Origin: an uncultured delta proteobacterium
GTDB lineage: Bacteria; Myxococcota_A; Polyangia; Palsa-1104
NCBI GenBank assembly: GCA_963785725.1
Contig: CAWAWS010000024.1
Coordinates: 96,001-160,000, forward strand
Length of the DNA: 64,000 bases
Reading direction: 5' to 3'
Shown: positions 18,879 through 36,698 of the stretch, piece by piece
Numbering within the stretch: the stretch's first letter is position 1
Layout: each line of letters begins with the position of its first letter
Translations under genes and position numbers: made by a program
The notes under the pieces: model-generated
Database searches by the model: none
What the model was told of the DNA's origin: nothing
Seen by the model: only the letters and a program-made list of their open reading frames with translations

Positions 18879-18977
18879 CTGACCGCAGGAGCCGACCGCG
18901 CCACCAGCCGACCGCAGTAGCCGAACCGCGTCAACCGACCGCATCAACCGACCGCAGCAGCCGACCGCACCGACCGA
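18879..18977 (+). repeat. Degenerate tandem array of CCGACCGC (about 8 units, ~13-bp period)
   Basis: ctgaccgcaggag ccgaccgcgccaccag ccgaccgcagtag ccgaaccgcgtcaa ccgaccgcatcaa ccgaccgcagcag ccgaccgca ccgaccg. Confidence 0.8.
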
Positions 18978-19062
18978 CGATCGATTCCGGAGGATGGTGG
19001 GTTCCGAAGGGCGGCCCCCAGCCGCCCTCCCTTAGTCATCGGCAATCTGCGCCAGAAGTTGC
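18974..19062 (+). repeat. Intergenic structured repeat family B, copy 1
   Basis: First 34 nt are identical to the reverse complement of 21800-21833. Core hairpin AGGGCGGC-CCCCA-GCCGCCCT; ends AAGTTGC. Confidence 0.85.
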
Positions 19063-21745: not shown

Positions 21746-21833
21746 GCAACTTTTCGGCGCGGCGCGCGATGACTTAGGGCGGGCGGCGGGGGCCGCCCGT
21801 CGGAACCCACCATCCTCCGGAATCGATCGTCGG
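21746..21833 (-). repeat. Intergenic structured repeat family B, copy 2
   Basis: Reverse complement matches 18974-19062; hairpin CGGGCGGC-CCCC-GCCGCCCG. Confidence 0.85.
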
Positions 21834-21863
21834 ACGCAGCCCTACCCGACGCTCGCCGCGACC

Positions 21864-28087: not shown

Positions 28088-28091
<4 letters not shown>

Positions 28092-29005
28092 GCGCGCCGG
28101 AAAAAGCAGCCGCGGCGAAGGCGATCGACAAAACGGCGGCGAAAGAGGGCGTCATCCTCGATCGCGGCTATCAGCCGTATCGCGGGCGCTATTTGCCGCA
28201 GTCGGGGCATTGGGCGGTGATCGCGCGGCAGATGCTGAAGACGACGGCGCGGCAGCCGTGGGTCATCGTCATGCTGGTGCTGGCGGCGCTGCCGACGGTG
28301 GTGTGCGGCGTCGTGCTCTATATCGCGACGAAAATGGCGGGCGTCGAGGGCGCCAAGGACGTCATGCAGCCCGATCGCATCGTCATGATGCCGTGGGGAA
28401 CGACGACGCTGGCGTTCTTCCTGGCGCTGTTCGCGGGCAGCGGGCAAGTGGCCGATGACGCGCGCGCCGGCGCCTTTCAGTTCTATTTTTCGCGGCCGGT
28501 GTCGCGCGATCAGTATCTCCTCGGCAAGCTGGTGCCGGTCATCGGCTTGACGGCGGTGGCGTCGCTCATGCCGTCGCTGTTGTTGGCGCTGCTGCGGCTG
28601 GCGCTGTTGCCGACGGGCGCCGAGGTCGTGCACCACCTGCCGATCGTCGGCGCGACGCTGCTCGTCGGGCTCATCGAGGCGCTGGCGCTGGCGGTGCCGG
28701 CGGTGGCGGCGTCGTCGCTGTCGAAGCGGCGCGGCTACGTGCAAGGCCTGTTCGCGACGCTGTATCTGCTGCCGTGGCTGGTCGGACGCATCTTCGTCGG
28801 CGTGACGCGCTCGGCGTGGCCGACGCTGCCGAGCGTGCCGGCGCACCTCGAGAACATCGCCCACGCGCTCTATCGGATTCCCTGGGCCAGCGACGAGCCG
28901 GCGCTGCCGGTGTGGGTCTCGCTGGCGTTCTTGGGCGCGCTCATCGGCGGCTCGTTCTGGCTTTTGCGCCGGCGGTTGGCGTCGGTGGAAGTGGTGGCCT
29001 CGTGA
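28088..29005 (+). CDS. ABC-2 type permease
   Basis: Multiple TM helices; YFSRPVSRDQYLLGK. Confidence 0.85.
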
Positions 29006-29097
29006 GTGAGCGTGAGCGAGCGAACGTGAGCGTCCGGCCCGTCGGGCCAGCGGATCGACCGGTTCGTTCACGGCGCACCGGCGAGGTGCAGCCGTGA
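29002..29097 (+). repeat. GTGA-junction element family A, copy 1 (31-aa mini-ORF)
   Basis: GTG overlaps the permease TGA; reads (M)SERERANVSVRPVGPADRPVRSRRTGEVQP. Its TGA overlaps the GTG start at 29094. Confidence 0.85.
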
Positions 29098-30026
29098 GCG
29101 AGCGGATCGCGATCGAGTGCGAGCACGCCGCGAAGTGGTACGGCCAGATCATCGCCGTCAACGACGTCAGCTTGCGCGTCGGACCGGGCGTCACCGGCTT
29201 ATTGGGACCGAACGGCGCCGGCAAATCGACGCTGCTCAAGATGATGGTCGGGCAGCTGCGGCCGTCCAAAGGCAGCGTCAAAGTGCTGGGCCAGCCGATC
29301 TGGGGCAATCCGGCGCTGCTACGCCAGATCGGCTACTGCCCCGAGCATGAAGGCACCTACGAAGACTTGACGGCGCTCGAGATGGTGACGGCGCTGACCG
29401 AGCTGCACGGCTTTACGCACGCCGACGCCAAAGCGCGCGCCGAGAAGCTCTTGCGTACGGTCGATCTCGGCGACGCCATGCACCGGCGGCTCGGCGAGTT
29501 CTCCAAAGGCATGCGGCAGCGCGCCAAGCTGGCGCAGGCGTTGGCGCACGATCCCGAGGTCATCTTCCTCGACGAGCCGCTGACGGGCTGCGATCCGCTG
29601 GCGCGCGTGCGGATCCTGGCGGTCATCTCGGAGCTGGCGGCGCAAGGTCGCTGCGTCATCGTGTCCTCGCACGTGCTGCACGAGATCGAGACGATGACGT
29701 CGCAGATCTTGCTCATCCACAAAGGGCAGCTGCGCGCCGAAGGTGACGTGCATCAGATTCGCGCGCTCATCGACGCCCATCCGCATCAGGTGCGCGTCGA
29801 GTGCGATCGGCCGCGCGCGCTCGGTCGCGTGCTCATCGAGGCGCCGCACGTCGTCTCCGTCAGCGTCGAGGGCGACGCGCTGGTCGTCGACACGCGCAAG
29901 CCGGACGAGCTCTATCCGGCGATTCCAGCGGCGGCGAAGGAGGCCGGCGTTTATATCCGCGCGCTCACGTCGCCCGACGACAACATGGCCGCGGTGTTCA
30001 AGTACCTGACGGAGACGGCGTCGTGA
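29094..30026 (+). CDS. ABC transporter ATP-binding protein
   Basis: GPNGAGKST, FSKGM and IFLDEP. Confidence 0.92.
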   Translation: MSERIAIECEHAAKWYGQIIAVNDVSLRVGPGVTGLLGPNGAGKSTLLKMMVGQLRPSKGSVKVLGQPIWGNPALLRQIGYCPEHEGTYEDLTALEMVTALTELHGFTHADAKARAEKLLRTVDLGDAMHRRLGEFSKGMRQRAKLAQALAHDPEVIFLDEPLTGCDPLARVRILAVISELAAQGRCVIVSSHVLHEIETMTSQILLIHKGQLRAEGDVHQIRALIDAHPHQVRVECDRPRALGRVLIEAPHVVSVSVEGDALVVDTRKPDELYPAIPAAAKEAGVYIRALTSPDDNMAAVFKYLTETAS

Positions 30027-30781
30027 TCACGATGGCAACGGGGACGCGCATCCACGCGCGGCTGAGCTGGACGCGTCTCAAGCGCGGGCGCATCGCGTGG
30101 GCGGCGGCGGCCATGTTCGCGCTGCCGCTGGCCTACGTCGTCGGGCTCGTCATCGCCGGCCATTGGGGTCGCGGCGTCTTCGACGAGGTAAACGAGCTCT
30201 ACTTCCGCTTCTTGGTGCCGTTCGTGCCGACGCTGCTGTTGTCGGCGGCGGTGGCCGAGGAGGTCGAGAACAAGACGTTCACGTTCGTCTTCGCGCGTCC
30301 GGCGCCGCGCGGCGCGCTGGTGCTCGGCAAGTGGCTGGCGGCGACGCTGCCGGCGATGGCCGTCGTCGCGCCGTCGCTGCTCGTCAGCTGGGCGGTCTCG
30401 AACGCGCGCTTTCCCGACGACTTCGCCAACGAGTGGCCGCATCTGTTGCGCGTCGAAGCGGCGGCGCTCATCGGGCTCGGCTTCTATGGCGCGCTGGCGG
30501 TGACCATTGGCTCGATCTTCTCGCGCCATCCGCTCATCGCCGTGCTCGGCTACTTGCTGGTCATCGAGGAGGCGCTGGGCTCGGCGCCGATCGTGCTCGA
30601 CCTCATGGCGGGCAGCTGGCACTTGCGCAACCTGGCGCAGCTGCCGTTGCCGGCGACGCAGTTCATGATGGTCGGCGTGCCCGCGTGGCTGTCGGCGCTC
30701 CTGCTGCTCGCGCTGACGCCGATCCTGCTCGTCCTGTGCATCTGGGGCGTGACGGGCGCCGAATATCGTACCGATCGGTGA
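30023..30781 (+). CDS. ABC-2 type permease
   Basis: EEVENKTFTFVFARPAPR...LGKW and TM helices; GTGA overlap with the upstream gene. Confidence 0.85.
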   Translation: MITMATGTRIHARLSWTRLKRGRIAWAAAAMFALPLAYVVGLVIAGHWGRGVFDEVNELYFRFLVPFVPTLLLSAAVAEEVENKTFTFVFARPAPRGALVLGKWLAATLPAMAVVAPSLLVSWAVSNARFPDDFANEWPHLLRVEAAALIGLGFYGALAVTIGSIFSRHPLIAVLGYLLVIEEALGSAPIVLDLMAGSWHLRNLAQLPLPATQFMMVGVPAWLSALLLLALTPILLVLCIWGVTGAEYRTDR

Positions 30782-30899
30782 CGCCGCTGACTCCGCCTTC
30801 AGCCGCCGTACCTCCATCAATGTAGAAATCGATTTCCAGCGTCATCACGCGACGACGCGGATCACGTGGCGCTTCGGCGACTCATGGCACCATGCGCCG

Positions 30900-31388
30900 A
30901 TGATCAGACCCGCAATCGTCCTCGCCCTTTTATCGTTCGCTTCGATCGCGCAGGCGCAGCAAGCGCAGGCGGCCCTGCAGGCGCAACAGGCGCAACAGAC
31001 GCAGCAAGCGGCGGCCATGCAGCAGGCCGAGCACGCGCATCGCCTCGCCGAGCAAGAGCAGCTGCCGCTGCGCCTGGCGATCGACCCGACGCGCCTCGTC
31101 ACCGTCGGGCTGTGGCCGGGGCCGGATGTGCCGTGCAAGCTGCCCAAGCGCGACAAGCCGTACGTCTGCCATCGCCTACTCGTCGGCCCGGCGGTGATCT
31201 ACTCGCAGCTCTACAGTGAGCTGATCGTCGCGCGCGGCGACGCGGCGTTGGCCAGAGGCGAGCGCTCGTGGTGGGTGCGCGGCGCGCCGCCGGTCCCGCT
31301 CGGTCTCGCCGCCGGCGAAGTGCTCTACCAAGTCGGCGACGACGGCCGTCCCGGCGAAGGCGACCTGATCGCCACCGTTTACCGCTAG
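30900..31388 (+). CDS. Secreted hypothetical protein with a Gln/Ala-rich N-terminus
   Basis: Signal peptide (AQA|Q) and AQQ repeats. Confidence 0.6.
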   Translation: MIRPAIVLALLSFASIAQAQQAQAALQAQQAQQTQQAAAMQQAEHAHRLAEQEQLPLRLAIDPTRLVTVGLWPGPDVPCKLPKRDKPYVCHRLLVGPAVIYSQLYSELIVARGDAALARGERSWWVRGAPPVPLGLAAGEVLYQVGDDGRPGEGDLIATVYR

Positions 31389-31395
31389 ATCGTCG

Positions 31396-31836
31396 CTACT
31401 TCACGAAGGCGTGCCAGAAGCGCGTCATCCACGACACCCAAATGATCGGCTCCGGCGCGTCGAACGGGATGCGCTCGTGAAACGCCGCCAACGGCGCCAG
31501 CTGCGCGCGGCTGGCGAAGAGGCCGAGGCACGTCGGGCAGCGCTCGACGACGGGCCCGCTGTCGAGATAGGGCCGCAAGACCAGCTCCGAGCCGTCGCGC
31601 GGGCAGCTGCCGCCGGCGCGCCCTTCGGGGCCGTTGCCCGGCGCGGGCTCGACGCGGCGAGCCACCCGCGTCGGCTCCTCGCCGAACCAGTCGAGCCAAA
31701 CGCCACGACAGGCGCCGCAGGCGAACACGACGCTCTCGCCGCCGGATGGGCCGTCGTCCTCGTCGCGGGCGCGCCACTCGGCCAACGGGCCGGTGCAGGC
31801 GGGGCAGGACAAGAACGCGCCGCGCGAGTCACTCAC
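31396..31836 (-). CDS. Zinc-ribbon (zf-TFIIB-like) domain protein
   Basis: CPAC, CGACRGVWLD, CPRD and CPTCLGLF. Confidence 0.7.
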   Translation of the reverse strand: MSDSRGAFLSCPACTGPLAEWRARDEDDGPSGGESVVFACGACRGVWLDWFGEEPTRVARRVEPAPGNGPEGRAGGSCPRDGSELVLRPYLDSGPVVERCPTCLGLFASRAQLAPLAAFHERIPFDAPEPIIWVSWMTRFWHAFVK

Positions 31837-31956
31837 GCGACCAGTGTACCGCCTCTCGCATCGGCGTGCCCGCGGTGACGACCGTGACGTCGACGGCCGC
31901 CGTCAGAGCGGCTGGTACGGCTCCTGCTTTAGTAGCCGGACAGGAGGACAAAACCG

Positions 31957-32109
31957 ATGCTCTGGACGCTTGCCGTGATCCTCGTCGTGCTGTGGGCCCT
32001 GGGCCTAGTGACCTCTTACACGATGGGCGGGTTCATCCACATCTTGTTGGTGCTGGCGGTCGTGGCGGTTGTCATCAGCCTCATCCGCGGGCGTGAACCG
32101 CTCGTGTAG
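31957..32109 (+). CDS. Small membrane protein, lmo0937/DUF5670 family (50 aa)
   Basis: AGGAGG RBS; MLWTLAVILVVLWALGLVTSYTMGGFIHILLVLAVVAVVISLIRGREPLV. Absent from the ORF track. Confidence 0.85.
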   Translation: MLWTLAVILVVLWALGLVTSYTMGGFIHILLVLAVVAVVISLIRGREPLV

Positions 32110-33516
32110 CTACGCGCTCAACACCGGCAGTCGCGTCGACGCGCGCTTCATCCGCGTCGGCGCGACCGTGCCCGTCACCGTCGCCGCCAAGTCGTAGTCG
32201 GCGTAGCCGGTGACGCGCGCGCGCACGAGATCGCCCGTGCGCGGCGCCTTGACGTCGTCGCCGAGCGCGAGGAACACCGAGCCGTCGATCTCGGGCGCCT
32301 GCCCTTCGTGACGTCCGACCATGAGGTATTCGGACTCTTCGCTCGGCCCTTCGACGAGGACTTCGATCTCCTGGCCGATCTGCGCCTTCATCTTCGTGCG
32401 CGAGATCTTGCGTTGGATGCGCATGATCTCGCGGCGCCGTTTCTCCATGTCCTTGCCGCTGACGAGGCCCAATTCGTCGGCGAGCTTGGCCGCGTGCGTG
32501 CCGTCTTCGTTCGAGTAGGTGAAGACGCCGACGCGGTCGAACTCGGCCTCTTTGACGAAGTCGGCCAAGCGCGCGAACGCCTCGTCGGTCTCGCCGGGAT
32601 GGCCGACGATGAACGTCGTGCGCAAGGTGACGCCGGGGATGCGCTCGCGAATCTTCTTCACGAGCGCACGCGTCGTCTTGCCCACGTGACCGCGCCGCAT
32701 CTTTTTCAGGACGTCGTCGTCGATGTGCTGCAGCGGCATGTCGATGTACTTGGCGACGCGCGGCTCTTCGGCGACCGCATCGAGCAGCGCATCCGTCGTC
32801 GCCGTCGGATAGGCGTAGTGCAAGCGCAGCCAACGCAAGCCGTCGACCTTCGCCAGCCGCCGCACCAGCGACGCCAGCTGCAGCTCGCCGTCGAGATCTT
32901 TGCCGTAGGTCGTCAGATCTTGCGCCACGAGGTTGATCTCGAAGGCGCCGCGCGCAACCAAGTCGCGCACTTCGCGCTCGATCGACGCGGCGTCGCGCGA
33001 GCGCTGACCGCCGCGCAGCTTCGGGATGATGCAGAACGAGCAGGGCCGATCGCAGCCTTCGGCGATCTTGACGTAAGCCGTATACGCCGGCATCGACAAC
33101 AGGCGCGGCGTCACGTCGTCGTAGAGGTACGCCGGATCGAGCGAGACGCCGTCGCGCGCGACCTTGCCTTTGATGGCGCCGACGATCTTGTCGACGTCGC
33201 CCGAGCCGAGAAAGTGGTCGACCTCGGGCATGTCGCGCGCCAGATCGCCGGCATAGCGCTGGGTCAAGCAGCCGGTGACGACGAGGTTCTTGCACGCGCC
33301 CTCGGTTTTGAAGCGCGCCATCTCGAGGATCGTGTCGACCGATTCCTCTTTCGCCTCGCCGATGAAGCCGCAGGTGTTGACGACGATGTGATCGGCCTCT
33401 TCAGGCGTCGTCGTGATGGTGTAGCCGGCGCGATCGGTCAACCCGAGCATGACTTCGGTGTCGACGCGATTTTTCGGGCAGCCGAGAGAGACGAAGTAGA
33501 CCGCTTGCTTCTTCAT
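32110..33516 (-). CDS. rimO: Ribosomal protein S12 methylthiotransferase
   Basis: SLGCPKNRVD, NTCGFI, radical-SAM CDRPCSFC and APEIDG. Confidence 0.95.
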   Translation of the reverse strand: MKKQAVYFVSLGCPKNRVDTEVMLGLTDRAGYTITTTPEEADHIVVNTCGFIGEAKEESVDTILEMARFKTEGACKNLVVTGCLTQRYAGDLARDMPEVDHFLGSGDVDKIVGAIKGKVARDGVSLDPAYLYDDVTPRLLSMPAYTAYVKIAEGCDRPCSFCIIPKLRGGQRSRDAASIEREVRDLVARGAFEINLVAQDLTTYGKDLDGELQLASLVRRLAKVDGLRWLRLHYAYPTATTDALLDAVAEEPRVAKYIDMPLQHIDDDVLKKMRRGHVGKTTRALVKKIRERIPGVTLRTTFIVGHPGETDEAFARLADFVKEAEFDRVGVFTYSNEDGTHAAKLADELGLVSGKDMEKRRREIMRIQRKISRTKMKAQIGQEIEVLVEGPSEESEYLMVGRHEGQAPEIDGSVFLALGDDVKAPRTGDLVRARVTGYADYDLAATVTGTVAPTRMKRASTRLPVLSA

Positions 33517-33535
33517 GAAAACGGCAAAAGCTGAC

Positions 33536-34840
33536 CTAGTGCGGGCCGCCTGTCAAGGACTGCACGGCCTCGACCGACACCGGCGCGACGTCGGGCACCG
33601 GCGTGCGGTCGTGCTCGCCGGCGAAATCGCCGAGGCCGCGGCGACGGCGGCGCGCGCTCAAGGCGACGAGCAAGAAGCCGCCGACGACGCCGGTTCCGGC
33701 GCACAAATAGAGCGCCATCGACAGGCCGTGCGCGTCGATGAGCACGCCGGCGATGGGCGCGAACGCGCCGAACGCCAGGCGGCGCGCCATCGATTCGACG
33801 CTGAGCACGGTCGCGCGCTGGCCCGAGTCGGCGATCTCGCGATTGAGCAGCTCCTTCGTAAACGGCGAATACAGACCGTTGACGAGCGCTTGCACGGCCA
33901 AGAGCGTGACGCACCAAATGGAGTCGAAGCGGCCCAAGATGGCGTAGCTGATGGCCAGCGCCAGCGGCAAGCTCCAGACGATCCACTTCTCGCCGATGAG
34001 GCGGCGGAAGCCGTCGATGCGCTGCGCGCCGGCGGCGCCGACGAACGACATCGCCGCCATCGTGATGCCGATGCCGACCGTCGACAGGCCGGCCACGTGC
34101 AAGTAGGGCTGCTGCCAATAGAGCGACATGCGCAAGAGTGTGAAGATGAGGACGCTGAAGCCGACGGCGAAACGCAGCGGCGCCTGCGTGACGACGGCGC
34201 GGGCGGCGTGCGCCATGCCGTGCAGGAAGTCGCTGTCGTCGTCGCGCGTAAAAGGCGGCTCGCGCATCATCATGGCGACGAGCGCGGCGGCGGCGCAGAC
34301 GCACGCGGTCGCGGCGTAGGTCGCCGCCGGCGCGTGCCGGCCGACGAAGCCGCCGGCGGCGAGCGCCAAGGCGGTGCCGATGAGCTTGGCGGCGGTGGCC
34401 GAGCCTTCGCGGCGGCGATATTCGTGCTCGCGGCCGTTGGCGCGCAAGAGATCGTACAGGTAGGCCGAGTCGGCGCCGGAGGTCAGCGTCATGCCCAGCG
34501 CGAGTAAGCCTTCGCCGAGCGCGAACGTCCAAAAGTCGCGGCCGTTGTAGTCGACGACGCAGCCGATGGCCATGAGCAGCGAGCCGAGCATCATGGCGCG
34601 ACAGCGGCCGAAGCGATCGGCGAGCGCGCCCGTCGGCACCTCGAACACGATGGCGGTCAACGCGTAGACGCTGTTGAGGAGCGCGATGTGCGTGAAATCG
34701 AGCGTGCGGCTGGCGAAGAAGCTCACCATCACCGGCTGAAACAGATACGACGTCGACAACAGCCGATAGACCTGGAACAGCTTCAGGTCGCGCGAGAGCC
34801 GCGCGTCGTCGCGCCGGCGATTGGGCACCGACGGGCTCAC
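33536..34840 (-). CDS. MFS transporter
   Basis: FEVPTGALADRFGR, SGADSAYLYD and about 12 TMs. Probable GTG start at 34840 or 34828; the ORF extends in frame to 35083 through repeat A copy 2. Confidence 0.9.
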   Translation of the reverse strand: MSPSVPNRRRDDARLSRDLKLFQVYRLLSTSYLFQPVMVSFFASRTLDFTHIALLNSVYALTAIVFEVPTGALADRFGRCRAMMLGSLLMAIGCVVDYNGRDFWTFALGEGLLALGMTLTSGADSAYLYDLLRANGREHEYRRREGSATAAKLIGTALALAAGGFVGRHAPAATYAATACVCAAAALVAMMMREPPFTRDDDSDFLHGMAHAARAVVTQAPLRFAVGFSVLIFTLLRMSLYWQQPYLHVAGLSTVGIGITMAAMSFVGAAGAQRIDGFRRLIGEKWIVWSLPLALAISYAILGRFDSIWCVTLLAVQALVNGLYSPFTKELLNREIADSGQRATVLSVESMARRLAFGAFAPIAGVLIDAHGLSMALYLCAGTGVVGGFLLVALSARRRRRGLGDFAGEHDRTPVPDVAPVSVEAVQSLTGGPH

Positions 34841-35083
34841 GGCCGCACTCGTGCCGCGGCCGGAGCATTCTGCTCCGGGACGGCACTCGTCTCGATCGAA
34901 GGGGGCAAGCCCCCCTCGTCGAGCTGAGCTCGACGAGCCTCCCCACGGCCGGACTCCCGGCCGACGGCCGCTTTGCGGCCTCTCGCGTAATCGAAACGCC
35001 TGGGTGGAAGCGCGCGCCGCGGCTGGCCCGCGGATTCGATCCGCCGGCCGGACGCTCACGTTCGCTCGCTCACGCTCGCTCAC
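34837..35083 (-). repeat. GTGA-junction element family A, copy 2 (expanded, contains a hairpin cassette)
   Basis: Starts GTGAGCGAGCGTGAGCGAGCGAACGTGAGCGTCCGGCC and ends GTGCGGCC|GTGAGC at the MFS start. Confidence 0.75.
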
Positions 35084-35172
35084 GGCCGCACCAGATGCGT
35101 CCGCGAGCCCGCCGCTCGTTCCGCTGGCCCTACGGGCCGGACGCTCACGTTCGCTCGCTCACGCTCGCTCAC
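35080..35172 (-). repeat. GTGA-junction element family A, copy 3 (30-aa mini-ORF)
   Basis: GTG overlaps the kinase TGA (35169-35171); reads (M)SERERANVSVRPVGPAERAAGSRTHLVRP. Its TGA overlaps the GTG of copy 2. Confidence 0.85.
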
Positions 35173-36206
35173 TGAAAGACCAACACCTTGTCTTCGCCGA
35201 ACTGCGCGATGAGGCCGTCGACGTAGCGCAACGCGACGTCACGACGCGCGATCACCGATTGCATCTCGGGCTCGGTCAACACGCCGGGCTCGGGCGAGAG
35301 CGCTTGGCGCAGGCCGACCAAATCGAGACGGCGTAGCGCCGCCACCATCTTCTTCGAGAACTTTTGGCAGCGGAACAGATAGGTGCGGCAGCGCAGGTGA
35401 CCTTCGGGCTCGATTTGGAAGCCGAAGGTGTTGTCCATCCAGAAGAGGACGCGGCCGTCTTTGGACGTCATCAAGTTACCGCCCGAGAAGCGATCGCTGT
35501 TGTTGGTCAGCATGTCGAACAGCAATAGCGACGACAGCTGGCTCATCAAGTTGACCTTGTCGGCGGGCAGCTCTTCTCCGACGGTCATCCAGCGCCACCA
35601 AGCGAGCACGTTGTCGAGCGTGTCGAGGTGCGAGTCGACGATGACGGGAATCCAGTAGCTGAGCTCGCCGCGCGTGAAGCCTTCGTCGTCGAAGGTCGTC
35701 TCGGCTTCGATGCGGCGCGCGAGAAACAGCGCGTCGGGCGGCAGCTTGCCGACGAGATCGTCGTGATGGAACGTGCGCATCGTCGCCGGCGGCACGACGT
35801 TGAAGCCGAGCCAGCGATTGAGTCGATAGGCCGCCACTTCTTTGCGCGGCACCGTCTGCGGATTGATCTGCTCGGGCTTGAAGGCGGCGCGCGATCCGTC
35901 GGCGAAGTCGAGGCGAAAGCTGATCGACGAGCCGCCCTTATTGAGCTTGGCCTGCTTGATCTCCGAGATGCGCATGCGATCGATCAGCATCTCGTCGTTC
36001 ATGCCGAGGAACGTGCCGGTGATCTCGGTCGTGACGTCGACGGGCGACGGCTCGAACCGCTCGGAGTCGAGCGGAACCAGCATCGTCGAATGTAACGCCC
36101 CGCCCGGCCTGACCGCGTGGCGCAACCGTTGCGCGCCGGTAAACACACCGGCGCCGGCTCCCCCCACGGCGAGGCACTCGAGCAGCACGAAAGCCCAGAG
36201 CCGCAC
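35169..36206 (-). CDS. Atypical kinase, FAM20/four-jointed/PI3-PI4K-like fold, with a hydrophobic N-terminus
   Basis: AAFKP, EVAAYRLNRWLGFNVVPP, FDMLTNNSDR and MDNTFGF. Confidence 0.65.
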   Translation of the reverse strand: MRLWAFVLLECLAVGGAGAGVFTGAQRLRHAVRPGGALHSTMLVPLDSERFEPSPVDVTTEITGTFLGMNDEMLIDRMRISEIKQAKLNKGGSSISFRLDFADGSRAAFKPEQINPQTVPRKEVAAYRLNRWLGFNVVPPATMRTFHHDDLVGKLPPDALFLARRIEAETTFDDEGFTRGELSYWIPVIVDSHLDTLDNVLAWWRWMTVGEELPADKVNLMSQLSSLLLFDMLTNNSDRFSGGNLMTSKDGRVLFWMDNTFGFQIEPEGHLRCRTYLFRCQKFSKKMVAALRRLDLVGLRQALSPEPGVLTEPEMQSVIARRDVALRYVDGLIAQFGEDKVLVFQ

Positions 36207-36591: not shown

Positions 36592-36698
36592 CGACGATCG
36601 ATTCTCGCGGTCGCGCGCGGATCAAGTGGGACGGCGGGTCCCCAAGGGCGGCCCCCAGCCGCCCTCCCTCGTTATCGCCAACCTCGCCGGAAAGTTGC
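36592..36698 (+). repeat. Intergenic structured repeat family B, copy 3 (diverged, with an internal insertion)
   Basis: CGACGATCGATTC...AAGGGCGGCCCCCAGCCGCCCTCCCT...AAGTTGC, as in copy 1. Confidence 0.8.

Follow-up and report, generated by a model that had tools for sequence, protein, structure and literature searches.

Short palindromic repeats at RTGA start codons in a Palsa-1104 genome resemble mycobacterial interspersed repetitive units

Introduction

Mycobacterial interspersed repetitive units (MIRUs) are said to go back to Supply et al. (1997). Passages of three papers (PMC12548453, PMC3184786, PMC4213456) describe them as units of 40–100 bp that are present in 40–50 copies per genome at start codons and contain an internal open reading frame (ORF) with a -4 overlap; filled and empty sites as well as tandem arrays are known, and the reported units of 77 and 53 bp are also 3n-1 in length. 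How MIRUs move and find start codons is left unexplained in the parts of the MIRU literature surveyed. Here we analyzed a repeat in a 64,000-nt stretch of DNA (hereafter the window; positions 96,001–160,000 of contig CAWAWS010000024.1, assembly GCA_963785725.1) of an uncultured delta proteobacterium (GTDB: Myxococcota_A, Polyangia, Palsa-1104), in which three copies lie at start codons followed by A (RTGA; R, purine). Judged by its sequence, the element is most probably a non-coding, non-autonomous insertion element of the MIRU type; by analogy it is likely to work as MIRUs do.

Several other systems provide points of comparison. Repetitive extragenic palindromes with their associated tyrosine transposases (REP/RAYT) and the CGTC palindromic repeats are thought, according to passages of one paper, to move in single-stranded form, an HUH tyrosine transposase acting in trans (PMC3733652). 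IS900, an autonomous 1.45-kb element of the IS110 family, makes no flanking repeat according to passages of PMC8141618; its target motif, in our own reading of those passages, is the reverse complement of a Shine–Dalgarno (SD) word plus ATG, which may serve as a precedent for targeting of start codons at the DNA level. Mini-hairpins of the GCGNNAGC / GCGNAGC type have been described at phage origins and promoters, and the GCGAAAGC mini-hairpin melts at 76.5 °C as DNA and at 39 °C as RNA; passages of the same paper (PMC13037366) make no mention of GCGNNAGC mini-hairpins as ends of chromosomal repeats. Models of RNA unfolding and reinitiation in translational coupling, as given in passages of PMC12548453, underlie the relay proposed below.

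Results

Copies in the window

The host genome (G000) comprises 8.9 Mb with 68% GC content and is 88% complete; four congeners (G001–G004) were available for comparison. The window copies, their parts, the nested repeat and the host genes are as follows.

29002..29097, + strand: copy 1, a 92-nt unit plus closing GTGA, with a 31-codon relay mini-ORF
29002..29025, + strand: left GA-zipper hairpin of copy 1, ((..((..((....))..))..)), in which base 1 (the start-codon purine) pairs with base 24
29010-29017, + strand: mini-hairpin GCGNNAGC of copy 1, the tip of the left zipper
29036..29048, + strand: middle hairpin of copy 1, a 5-bp stem and 3-nt loop, with 3/5 pairs changed on both sides
29066..29099, + strand: 3' hairpin of copy 1, pairing over the SD-like word and the downstream GTG start
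29083..29088, + strand: SD-like GAGGTG of copy 1, supplied by the element, 5 nt upstream of the ATPase start
35080..35172, - strand: copy 3, an 89-nt unit with a 30-codon relay mini-ORF closing on the GTGA of copy 2
34837..35083, - strand: copy 2, 243 nt (3n), tandem partner of copy 3, stop-free and in frame with the gene of a major facilitator superfamily (MFS) transporter
34888-34977, - strand: second, unrelated palindromic repeat of about 90 nt nested within copy 2, with 13 BLAST matches in G000 including itself
28088..29005, + strand: upstream host gene of locus 1, an ABC-2 type permease
29094..30026, + strand: downstream host gene of locus 1, an ABC transporter ATPase
35169..36206, - strand: upstream host gene of locus 2, 345 aa, with weak similarity to TIGR03843 (SCO1664 family), below the cut-off
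33536..34840, - strand: downstream host gene of locus 2, the MFS transporter, whose start in congeners is the equivalent of 34840

A preliminary description of this DNA, made from the letters and their ORFs, had given the coordinates, peptides and lengths of the three copies correctly, and each first GTG does overlap the upstream TGA. The mini-ORF of copy 1 starts over the permease stop and stops over the ATPase start. Its previously noted GGCCC hairpin is the 5-bp-stem middle hairpin, and the SD-like GAGGTG ahead of its downstream start is also present. Copies 3 and 2 stand in tandem, together measuring 332 nt (3n-1), and copy 2 runs in frame into the MFS gene, again as described; copy 2 is indeed a further copy of the repeat, but a composite one, with the unrelated palindromic repeat (about ten matches in congener G004) nested in it. 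The GTGA junction holds for the window copies but not as a general rule, the junction of the family being RTGA. The middles of the copies, described as diverged, have diverged, but actually supply the 5' arm of a hairpin covering the downstream SD-like word and start codon. The element had no match in Rfam at the gathering score, and no tRNA was found in the window.

Copy number and distribution

A 25-nt core, from which the terminal RTGA was excluded, gave 24 genome matches, with RTGA ahead at the same offset in 22. An iterated nhmmer profile found 45 matches in G000 at E<=0.01 and none in the reversed genome; these matches merge into 37 loci, six of them tandem, so the copies first described belong to a dispersed set. 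With a covariance model, 42 copies were found in G000, 27, 16, 8 and 1 in the four congeners, and one or two in each of four other genera of the same family. The three-hairpin family was thus present in 8 of 14 genomes of the host's family, was absent from all 26 genomes from other families of the order, and was not found outside the host's family, Mycobacterium included; 300 other genomes of the phylum contained no match to the exact left-end pattern. Single units measure 44–98 nt, typically 86–92 nt, and in both size and copy number the element matches the MIRUs. Among the 37 of 42 downstream frames scanned, the host genes include trpA, pheT, mrdA, nuoJ, panC, hisF and pyrR, with no function in common.

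Position, orientation and reading frame

Gene calls came from a simple in-house caller, and the frame of the downstream gene was set by a hexamer model independent of the element's own stop. A length taken up to the first stop is bound to be 3n-1; this circular measure was replaced by the downstream-frame test. The 3n-1 rule, which had rested on two copies, applied to 23 of 29 single-copy G000 loci with downstream coding (three others were in frame and three 3n+1) and to 33 of 37 single loci of relatives (three in frame, one 3n+1); the relatives' 41 loci had been retrieved with a pattern starting RTGA, so their anchoring, though not their frame, is given by construction. The three 3n+1 loci of G000 are degenerate copies, anchored by the script 14 nt further upstream, and relay in two steps. 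In simulation, the relay ran through to the downstream gene at 33 of the 35 G000 loci and at 33 of 38 loci of relatives, in keeping with the internal ORF and same-direction -4 overlap of MIRUs.

At 26 of the 36 anchored G000 loci the element sits on the stop of a called gene, against a background of 1,944 among 101,452 RTGA words genome-wide; two further loci lie on TAATG or TGATG overlaps, and the rest are mostly start codons without overlap. Sense orientation, proposed as a check in the preliminary description, was seen at 35 of these 36 loci, which lead into a coding frame on the same strand. The stop/start overlap, by contrast, describes the target at about three quarters of the loci and not at the remainder; the target is better given as the RTGA start codon. 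G000 contains 12,539 non-coding RTGA words and 746 called overlaps, and random insertion at RTGA followed by purging therefore fails to explain the distribution.

The two G000 loci at which the simulated relay stopped short are G000:C2:250855 (-) and G000:C5:238979 (-). One is a triple array that has lost a junction TGA and runs into a stop; in the other, the downstream gene is apparently frameshifted soon after its start, possibly by an assembly error. As a separate observation, among co-directional, non-overlapping gene pairs of G000 up to 130 nt apart, a stop-free 3n-1 mini-ORF bridges 114 of 327 RTGA-ending junctions and 81 of 550 YTGA-ending ones (Y, pyrimidine), only 17 being recognized copies. 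Many bridged RTGA junctions may be decayed elements or shifted starts.

Filled and empty sites

The preliminary description had named empty GTGA junctions in orthologous operons as a sign of insertion, and the full element is missing from both window sites in all four congeners. At locus 1, G001, G002 and G003 have the plain overlap, and in G004 the element's two ends form a 17-nt stub. The locus-2 spacers of the four congeners measure 26, 11, 26 and 17 nt; each is 3n-1 and lacks the element interior. Both flanks of 31 of the relatives' 41 loci could be mapped to G000, where the element was absent from 27; the 31 sites comprised four filled ones, 11 direct overlaps, two short bridges, nine separated stop/start pairs and five that were unlinked or could not be resolved. 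No sequence resembling the element interior was found at the empty sites, and comparison of the orthologs by eye, at about 80% identity, gave no sign of which end carries the host's purine.

Variation was also found in metagenome contigs. One from run X1 skips 29006-29107, so that copy 1 is absent, whereas one from run X4 covers it; at locus 2, a contig from run X2 carries one copy in place of the window's two and differs by -87 and -24 nt, which leaves 221 nt, again 3n-1, barring a hidden indel. The element thereby matches MIRUs both in having filled and empty sites, among congeners and metagenome contigs alike, and in its variable tandem number (six of 37 loci; one copy against two in the metagenome contig). 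MIRUs are co-transcribed on polycistronic mRNA; the contigs of the one RNA run, X7, give hardly any coverage of the organism.

Secondary structure

The element has three covarying hairpins. Its left 24 nt form a zipper of three 2-bp stems with tandem GA/GA mismatches between them and a GNNA loop, the tip being the GCGNNAGC / GCGNAGC mini-hairpin at 50 of 73 loci. Bases 1 and 24 read AT at 17, GC at 39, AC at 7, GT at 1 and otherwise at 9 loci (73 of 78 loci), and three of the four best-filled genomes contain both states of base 1, as do, by eye, both subtypes of the middle hairpin. Both terminal purines covary with internal bases, and the left purine is independent of the right one (26 same, 24 different, n=50). 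Each end thus pairs with an internal segment and not end to end, unlike the ends of classical miniature inverted-repeat transposable elements. MIRUs have a tetranucleotide direct repeat at their ends; the element has RTGA at both ends, with independent purines and a weak additional match over the 4 nt ahead of them (81 vs 64.8 in swapped pairs, p 0.002; over 9 nt at one locus), and this small excess over 4 nt was all that a search for a long target duplication gave. MIRUs differ from the element in phylum and in sequence, and the element is further distinguished by its three hairpins and by a 24-nt left zipper that includes the start-codon purine.

The 3' hairpin makes up the 3' third of the element, with the SD-like word plus downstream start as its right arm. 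Among 50 intact single copies, a copy's own arms paired at -20.2 kcal/mol and swapped arms at -16.2 kcal/mol, a difference reached in 0 of 10,000 permutations; own arms beat the swapped mean in 41 of the 50 copies and were the best of all in 14. The probability that the start codon is unpaired was 0.19 in the copies and 0.44 at 250 of the 746 ordinary overlaps. A MAFFT alignment of 35 copies had 91.3% of its cells paired and 13 of 27 pairs changed on both sides, and these two-sided changes exceeded all 500 shuffles and all slid controls, where the pairing tested was drawn from the same 35 sequences and the rows had been picked as intact. Template switching, without selection, could also make a perfect 3' hairpin.

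An SD-like word stands ahead of the right start in 44 of 50 copies, compared with 328 of 746 ordinary overlaps; ahead of the left RTG the count was 24 of 50, which is no enrichment. GC follows the right RTGA in 33 of 50 copies (187 of 746 ordinary overlaps). GTAG lies in the middle loop, and the ends of the element are RTGA.

Search for a mobilizing enzyme

No autonomous partner came to light in searches of the Y1, IS110 and GIY-YIG families; DDE families were not included. G000 has two GIY-YIG matches, presumably a UvrC-like protein and a small stand-alone nuclease. The preliminary description had suggested an IS200/RAYT or IS110 transposase bearing the same ends, and none flanked by the element was found. 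Like REP/RAYT repeats, the element is short, palindromic, multi-copy and non-coding; unlike them, it lacks a terminal GTAG or CGTC tag and holds a strict start-codon position in one orientation. It differs from IS110/IS900 in that no IS110 was found with its ends and in the absence of SD-like enrichment ahead of the left RTG; the ends of one IS110 in G002 are unrelated to the element.

Multi-copy Y1-like genes of about 190 aa occur in G001, G003, G004 and G005 (L344-L362), with 13 matches in G001. In genome G344, a truncated 32-nt actinobacterial copy (L367:1882-1967) adjoins the 3' end of an IS110 transposase gene on the opposite strand, and a long antisense frame spans this IS, as described for IS900 in passages of PMC8141618. 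In this one case, the element's SD-like word and start may have been the target of the IS110.

Related repeats in other groups

The 21–22-nt left motif occurs in at least 121 stretches of GTDB genomes. Eighty of them were examined as loci: 69 come from records named Actinomycetota, 69 start RTGA, and 55 of the 58 with downstream coding relay into it. A Nocardia had 28 exact matches, a Micromonospora 10 and an uncultured actinobacterium 30. An alignment of 50 of the 67 intact actinobacterial copies showed the same two-ended pairing. Searching 61 genomes of a genus, by inference Mycobacterium, with the actinobacterial model also recovered a 65-nt 'MSEACERI' family; it is present in 16 of them, and 24 of the 30 loci examined relay. 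Both these repeats and the actinobacterial 'MSERSER...ERSEV' repeats share with the element the left zipper (24 nt identical in the SERQRAN subtype), the relay from RTGA to RTGA and the 3' hairpin over SD and start; they differ in lacking the middle hairpin, in having another zipper within the 3' hairpin loop, and in length (65–80 vs 86–92 nt).

In the same inferred Mycobacterium genus, 122 of 151 genomes contain the tip motif, three of them with 44-55 occurrences, in units of 50–53 nt that are often bounded by RTGA. These units have only the 11-nt tip GAGCG-N-AGCGA and the overall design in common with the element and score a weak 12.8–17.8 bits with the actinobacterial model; they were the only mycobacterial units compared with regard to MIRU homology. 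A published M. intracellulare repeat primer, taken from passages of PMC10117815, matches them. MIRUs differ from the three-hairpin family in occurring in Mycobacterium; related two-zipper elements do occur in the mycobacterial genus. A 60-genome search for PE found no PE-rich genome and thus yielded no senX3-regX3 MIRU.

Viral stretches with a 21-nt zipper (L299-L341) are in many cases low in GC and non-coding; among 50 of the 102 ORFs beside them, no transposase and no Rep was found, and five were terminase subunits. Plasmids gave weak matches only (E 0.2 or worse). Palindromic repeats of Gemmatimonadota, Acidobacteriota and Phycisphaerae (L084, L090, L112, L130, L146) have the zipper behind CTGA and do not relay. 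One archaeal left-motif match, a single copy in Halosimplex (L142 / G343), starts with ATGA and closes on RTGA after 83 nt, with an ambiguous coding frame downstream. The zipper in viruses and in the CTGA-type repeats of other phyla counts against simple homology; it appears to be a reused module, of either horizontal or convergent origin. The literature searched, which covered few subscription journals and no supplements, contained no description of the element family, the actinobacterial family or the zipper anatomy. The family and this anatomy are apparently new, while the principle of a start-codon relay is already known from mycobacterial MIRUs, as passages of PMC12548453 and PMC3184786 state.

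Discussion

The number of copies, their orientation, the frame rule and the empty sites support the idea with which this repeat was first presented, a non-autonomous element that enters stop/start overlaps and stays non-polar by relaying ribosomes. We infer mobility because dispersed copies occur together with empty sites. Insertion would take place at RTGA start codons, mostly those overlapping the stop of the preceding gene. The host start codon to the left of the element would then open a throw-away frame of 25–33 codons, and the element would bring its own SD-like word and a second RTGA, the frame stopping over the new start of the host gene. Ribosomes would read the mini-ORF, whose translation we infer from sequence, open up the 3' hairpin masking the downstream SD and start, and then terminate and reinitiate; in-frame copies would reach the same end as N-terminal extensions. 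Such a relay, with hairpin melting and reinitiation, probably makes insertion nearly neutral and leaves the downstream gene coupled. It is also reasonably likely that frame-breaking indels are purged and that copies decay by threes to stubs of 11–26 nt.

The element may have moved as single-stranded DNA, with the GCGNNAGC zipper as its recognition handle and the terminal RTGA words held by pairing. A DNA-stable zipper and the pairing of both RTGA ends favor such a single-strand route with guide-like pairing, which is found in IS200/IS605 elements. As for the enzyme acting in trans, an HUH/Y1-like protein is a tentative candidate; an IS110-like enzyme, host replication or recombination proteins, and some other class are each doubtful. 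Tandem copies could arise by local slippage between two RTGA ends.

Several observations weigh against an insertion element. In G000, at 88% completeness, tblastn gave no Y1 match, and no IS110 match was found either. Twenty of the 24 Y1 matches in relatives were examined, and none was flanked by the element (best 15.2 bits); among 20 examined of the 40 IS110 matches in relatives and other carriers, no copy adjoined, the truncated actinobacterial case in G344 excepted. The independence of the two purines means that a clean 4-nt target duplication is not visible. Among 20 dispersed G000 copies, similarity averages 70% and does not exceed 85%, which points to old activity with gains and losses and no recent burst. 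Four of the 31 mappable sites are filled in both genomes and two sites are common to two relatives; with these shared sites and the 3n-1 spacers at locus 2 in all four congeners, part of the patchiness may be the loss of old insertions. The relay fails at two of 35 G000 loci and at five of 38 in relatives, two of the latter ending in TTGA or CTGA. The 21-nt zipper also occurs in 43 viral stretches, only two of which relay. Finally, copies and their kin share ancestry, and the p-values overstate their independence.

Three other explanations were considered. It is unlikely that the element is a domesticated regulatory module, whose cassettes the cell keeps to tune or tighten the coupling of particular operons. 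Like a selected RNA structure, the 3' hairpin shows covariation in individual copies and tolerance of G-U (7/35 at one pair), and two genomes share a few filled sites, among them the junction ahead of trpA; but another congener lacks the element at both window sites and at 27 of 31 mappable ones, copy number ranges from 1 to 42 within the genus, and the hosts lack a common function. The 'translational tuning module' offered as an alternative in the preliminary description accordingly finds little support, junction occupancy varying freely among congeners.

Spread without transposition, through duplication or slippage of junctions and ectopic recombination or gene conversion between sequences resembling ribosome-binding sites, with host enzymes only, is very unlikely. 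The lack of a transposase, the six tandem loci, the raised match over the last 4 nt ahead of the RTGA ends and the frequency of bridged RTGA junctions beyond the family would suit it, but the same 55-nt left half stands at 37 unlinked loci beyond the reach of local duplication, the match excess is small, and the empty sites hold nothing like the element interior. Hardly credible at all is a functional 'SERERAN' peptide, such as a ribosome-stalling or regulatory leader: the N-terminal residues appear conserved and a shuffled 3' half stays open only 75% of the time, which indicates some constraint on openness, but the variable peptide-coding bases make up the hairpin loop and include a first codon position at which three states are common, all later residues change with the 2-nt difference that separates the subtypes, and actinobacterial loops of 3 and 4 nt read SERSER or SERQRAN within the same genera, as different frames of one structure. 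The proposed short-peptide relay thus stands as a frame, whereas the 'SERERAN' sequence itself appears to be a by-product of the conserved hairpin.

A broader extension of the insertion-element reading is speculative: MIRUs might be one branch of a cross-phylum 'zipper-relay' superfamily, in which base pairing finds start sites and a hairpin-hidden SD and start makes the captured gene dependent on the relay. Internal segments would pair with the target RTGA(GC) and with the element's own end, guiding a single-strand transposase or a host enzyme. Were this true, some of the many anonymous 3n-1 spacers in high-GC operons would be decayed copies.

Together with its actinobacterial relatives, the element provides divergent copies by the hundred from non-pathogens, and their defined structure leads to testable predictions on target pairing and on the enzyme. 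It would represent a route by which selfish DNA enters core operons (trpA, pheT, mrdA, nuoJ) without polarity. For annotation, it calls for caution over false N-terminal 'MSERER/MSERSER' extensions, and the copies may be of use as natural coupling cassettes for synthetic operons.

Other features of the window

A 468-aa protein encoded at 32110-33516 (+), which we take to resemble a RimO/MiaB-type radical SAM enzyme, unexpectedly had no family in Pfam or NCBIfam. A third repeat family is represented by an inverted pair at 18971-19019 / 21788-21836 and by a weaker copy near 36629; it has 23 BLAST matches in G000, some of them in tandem.

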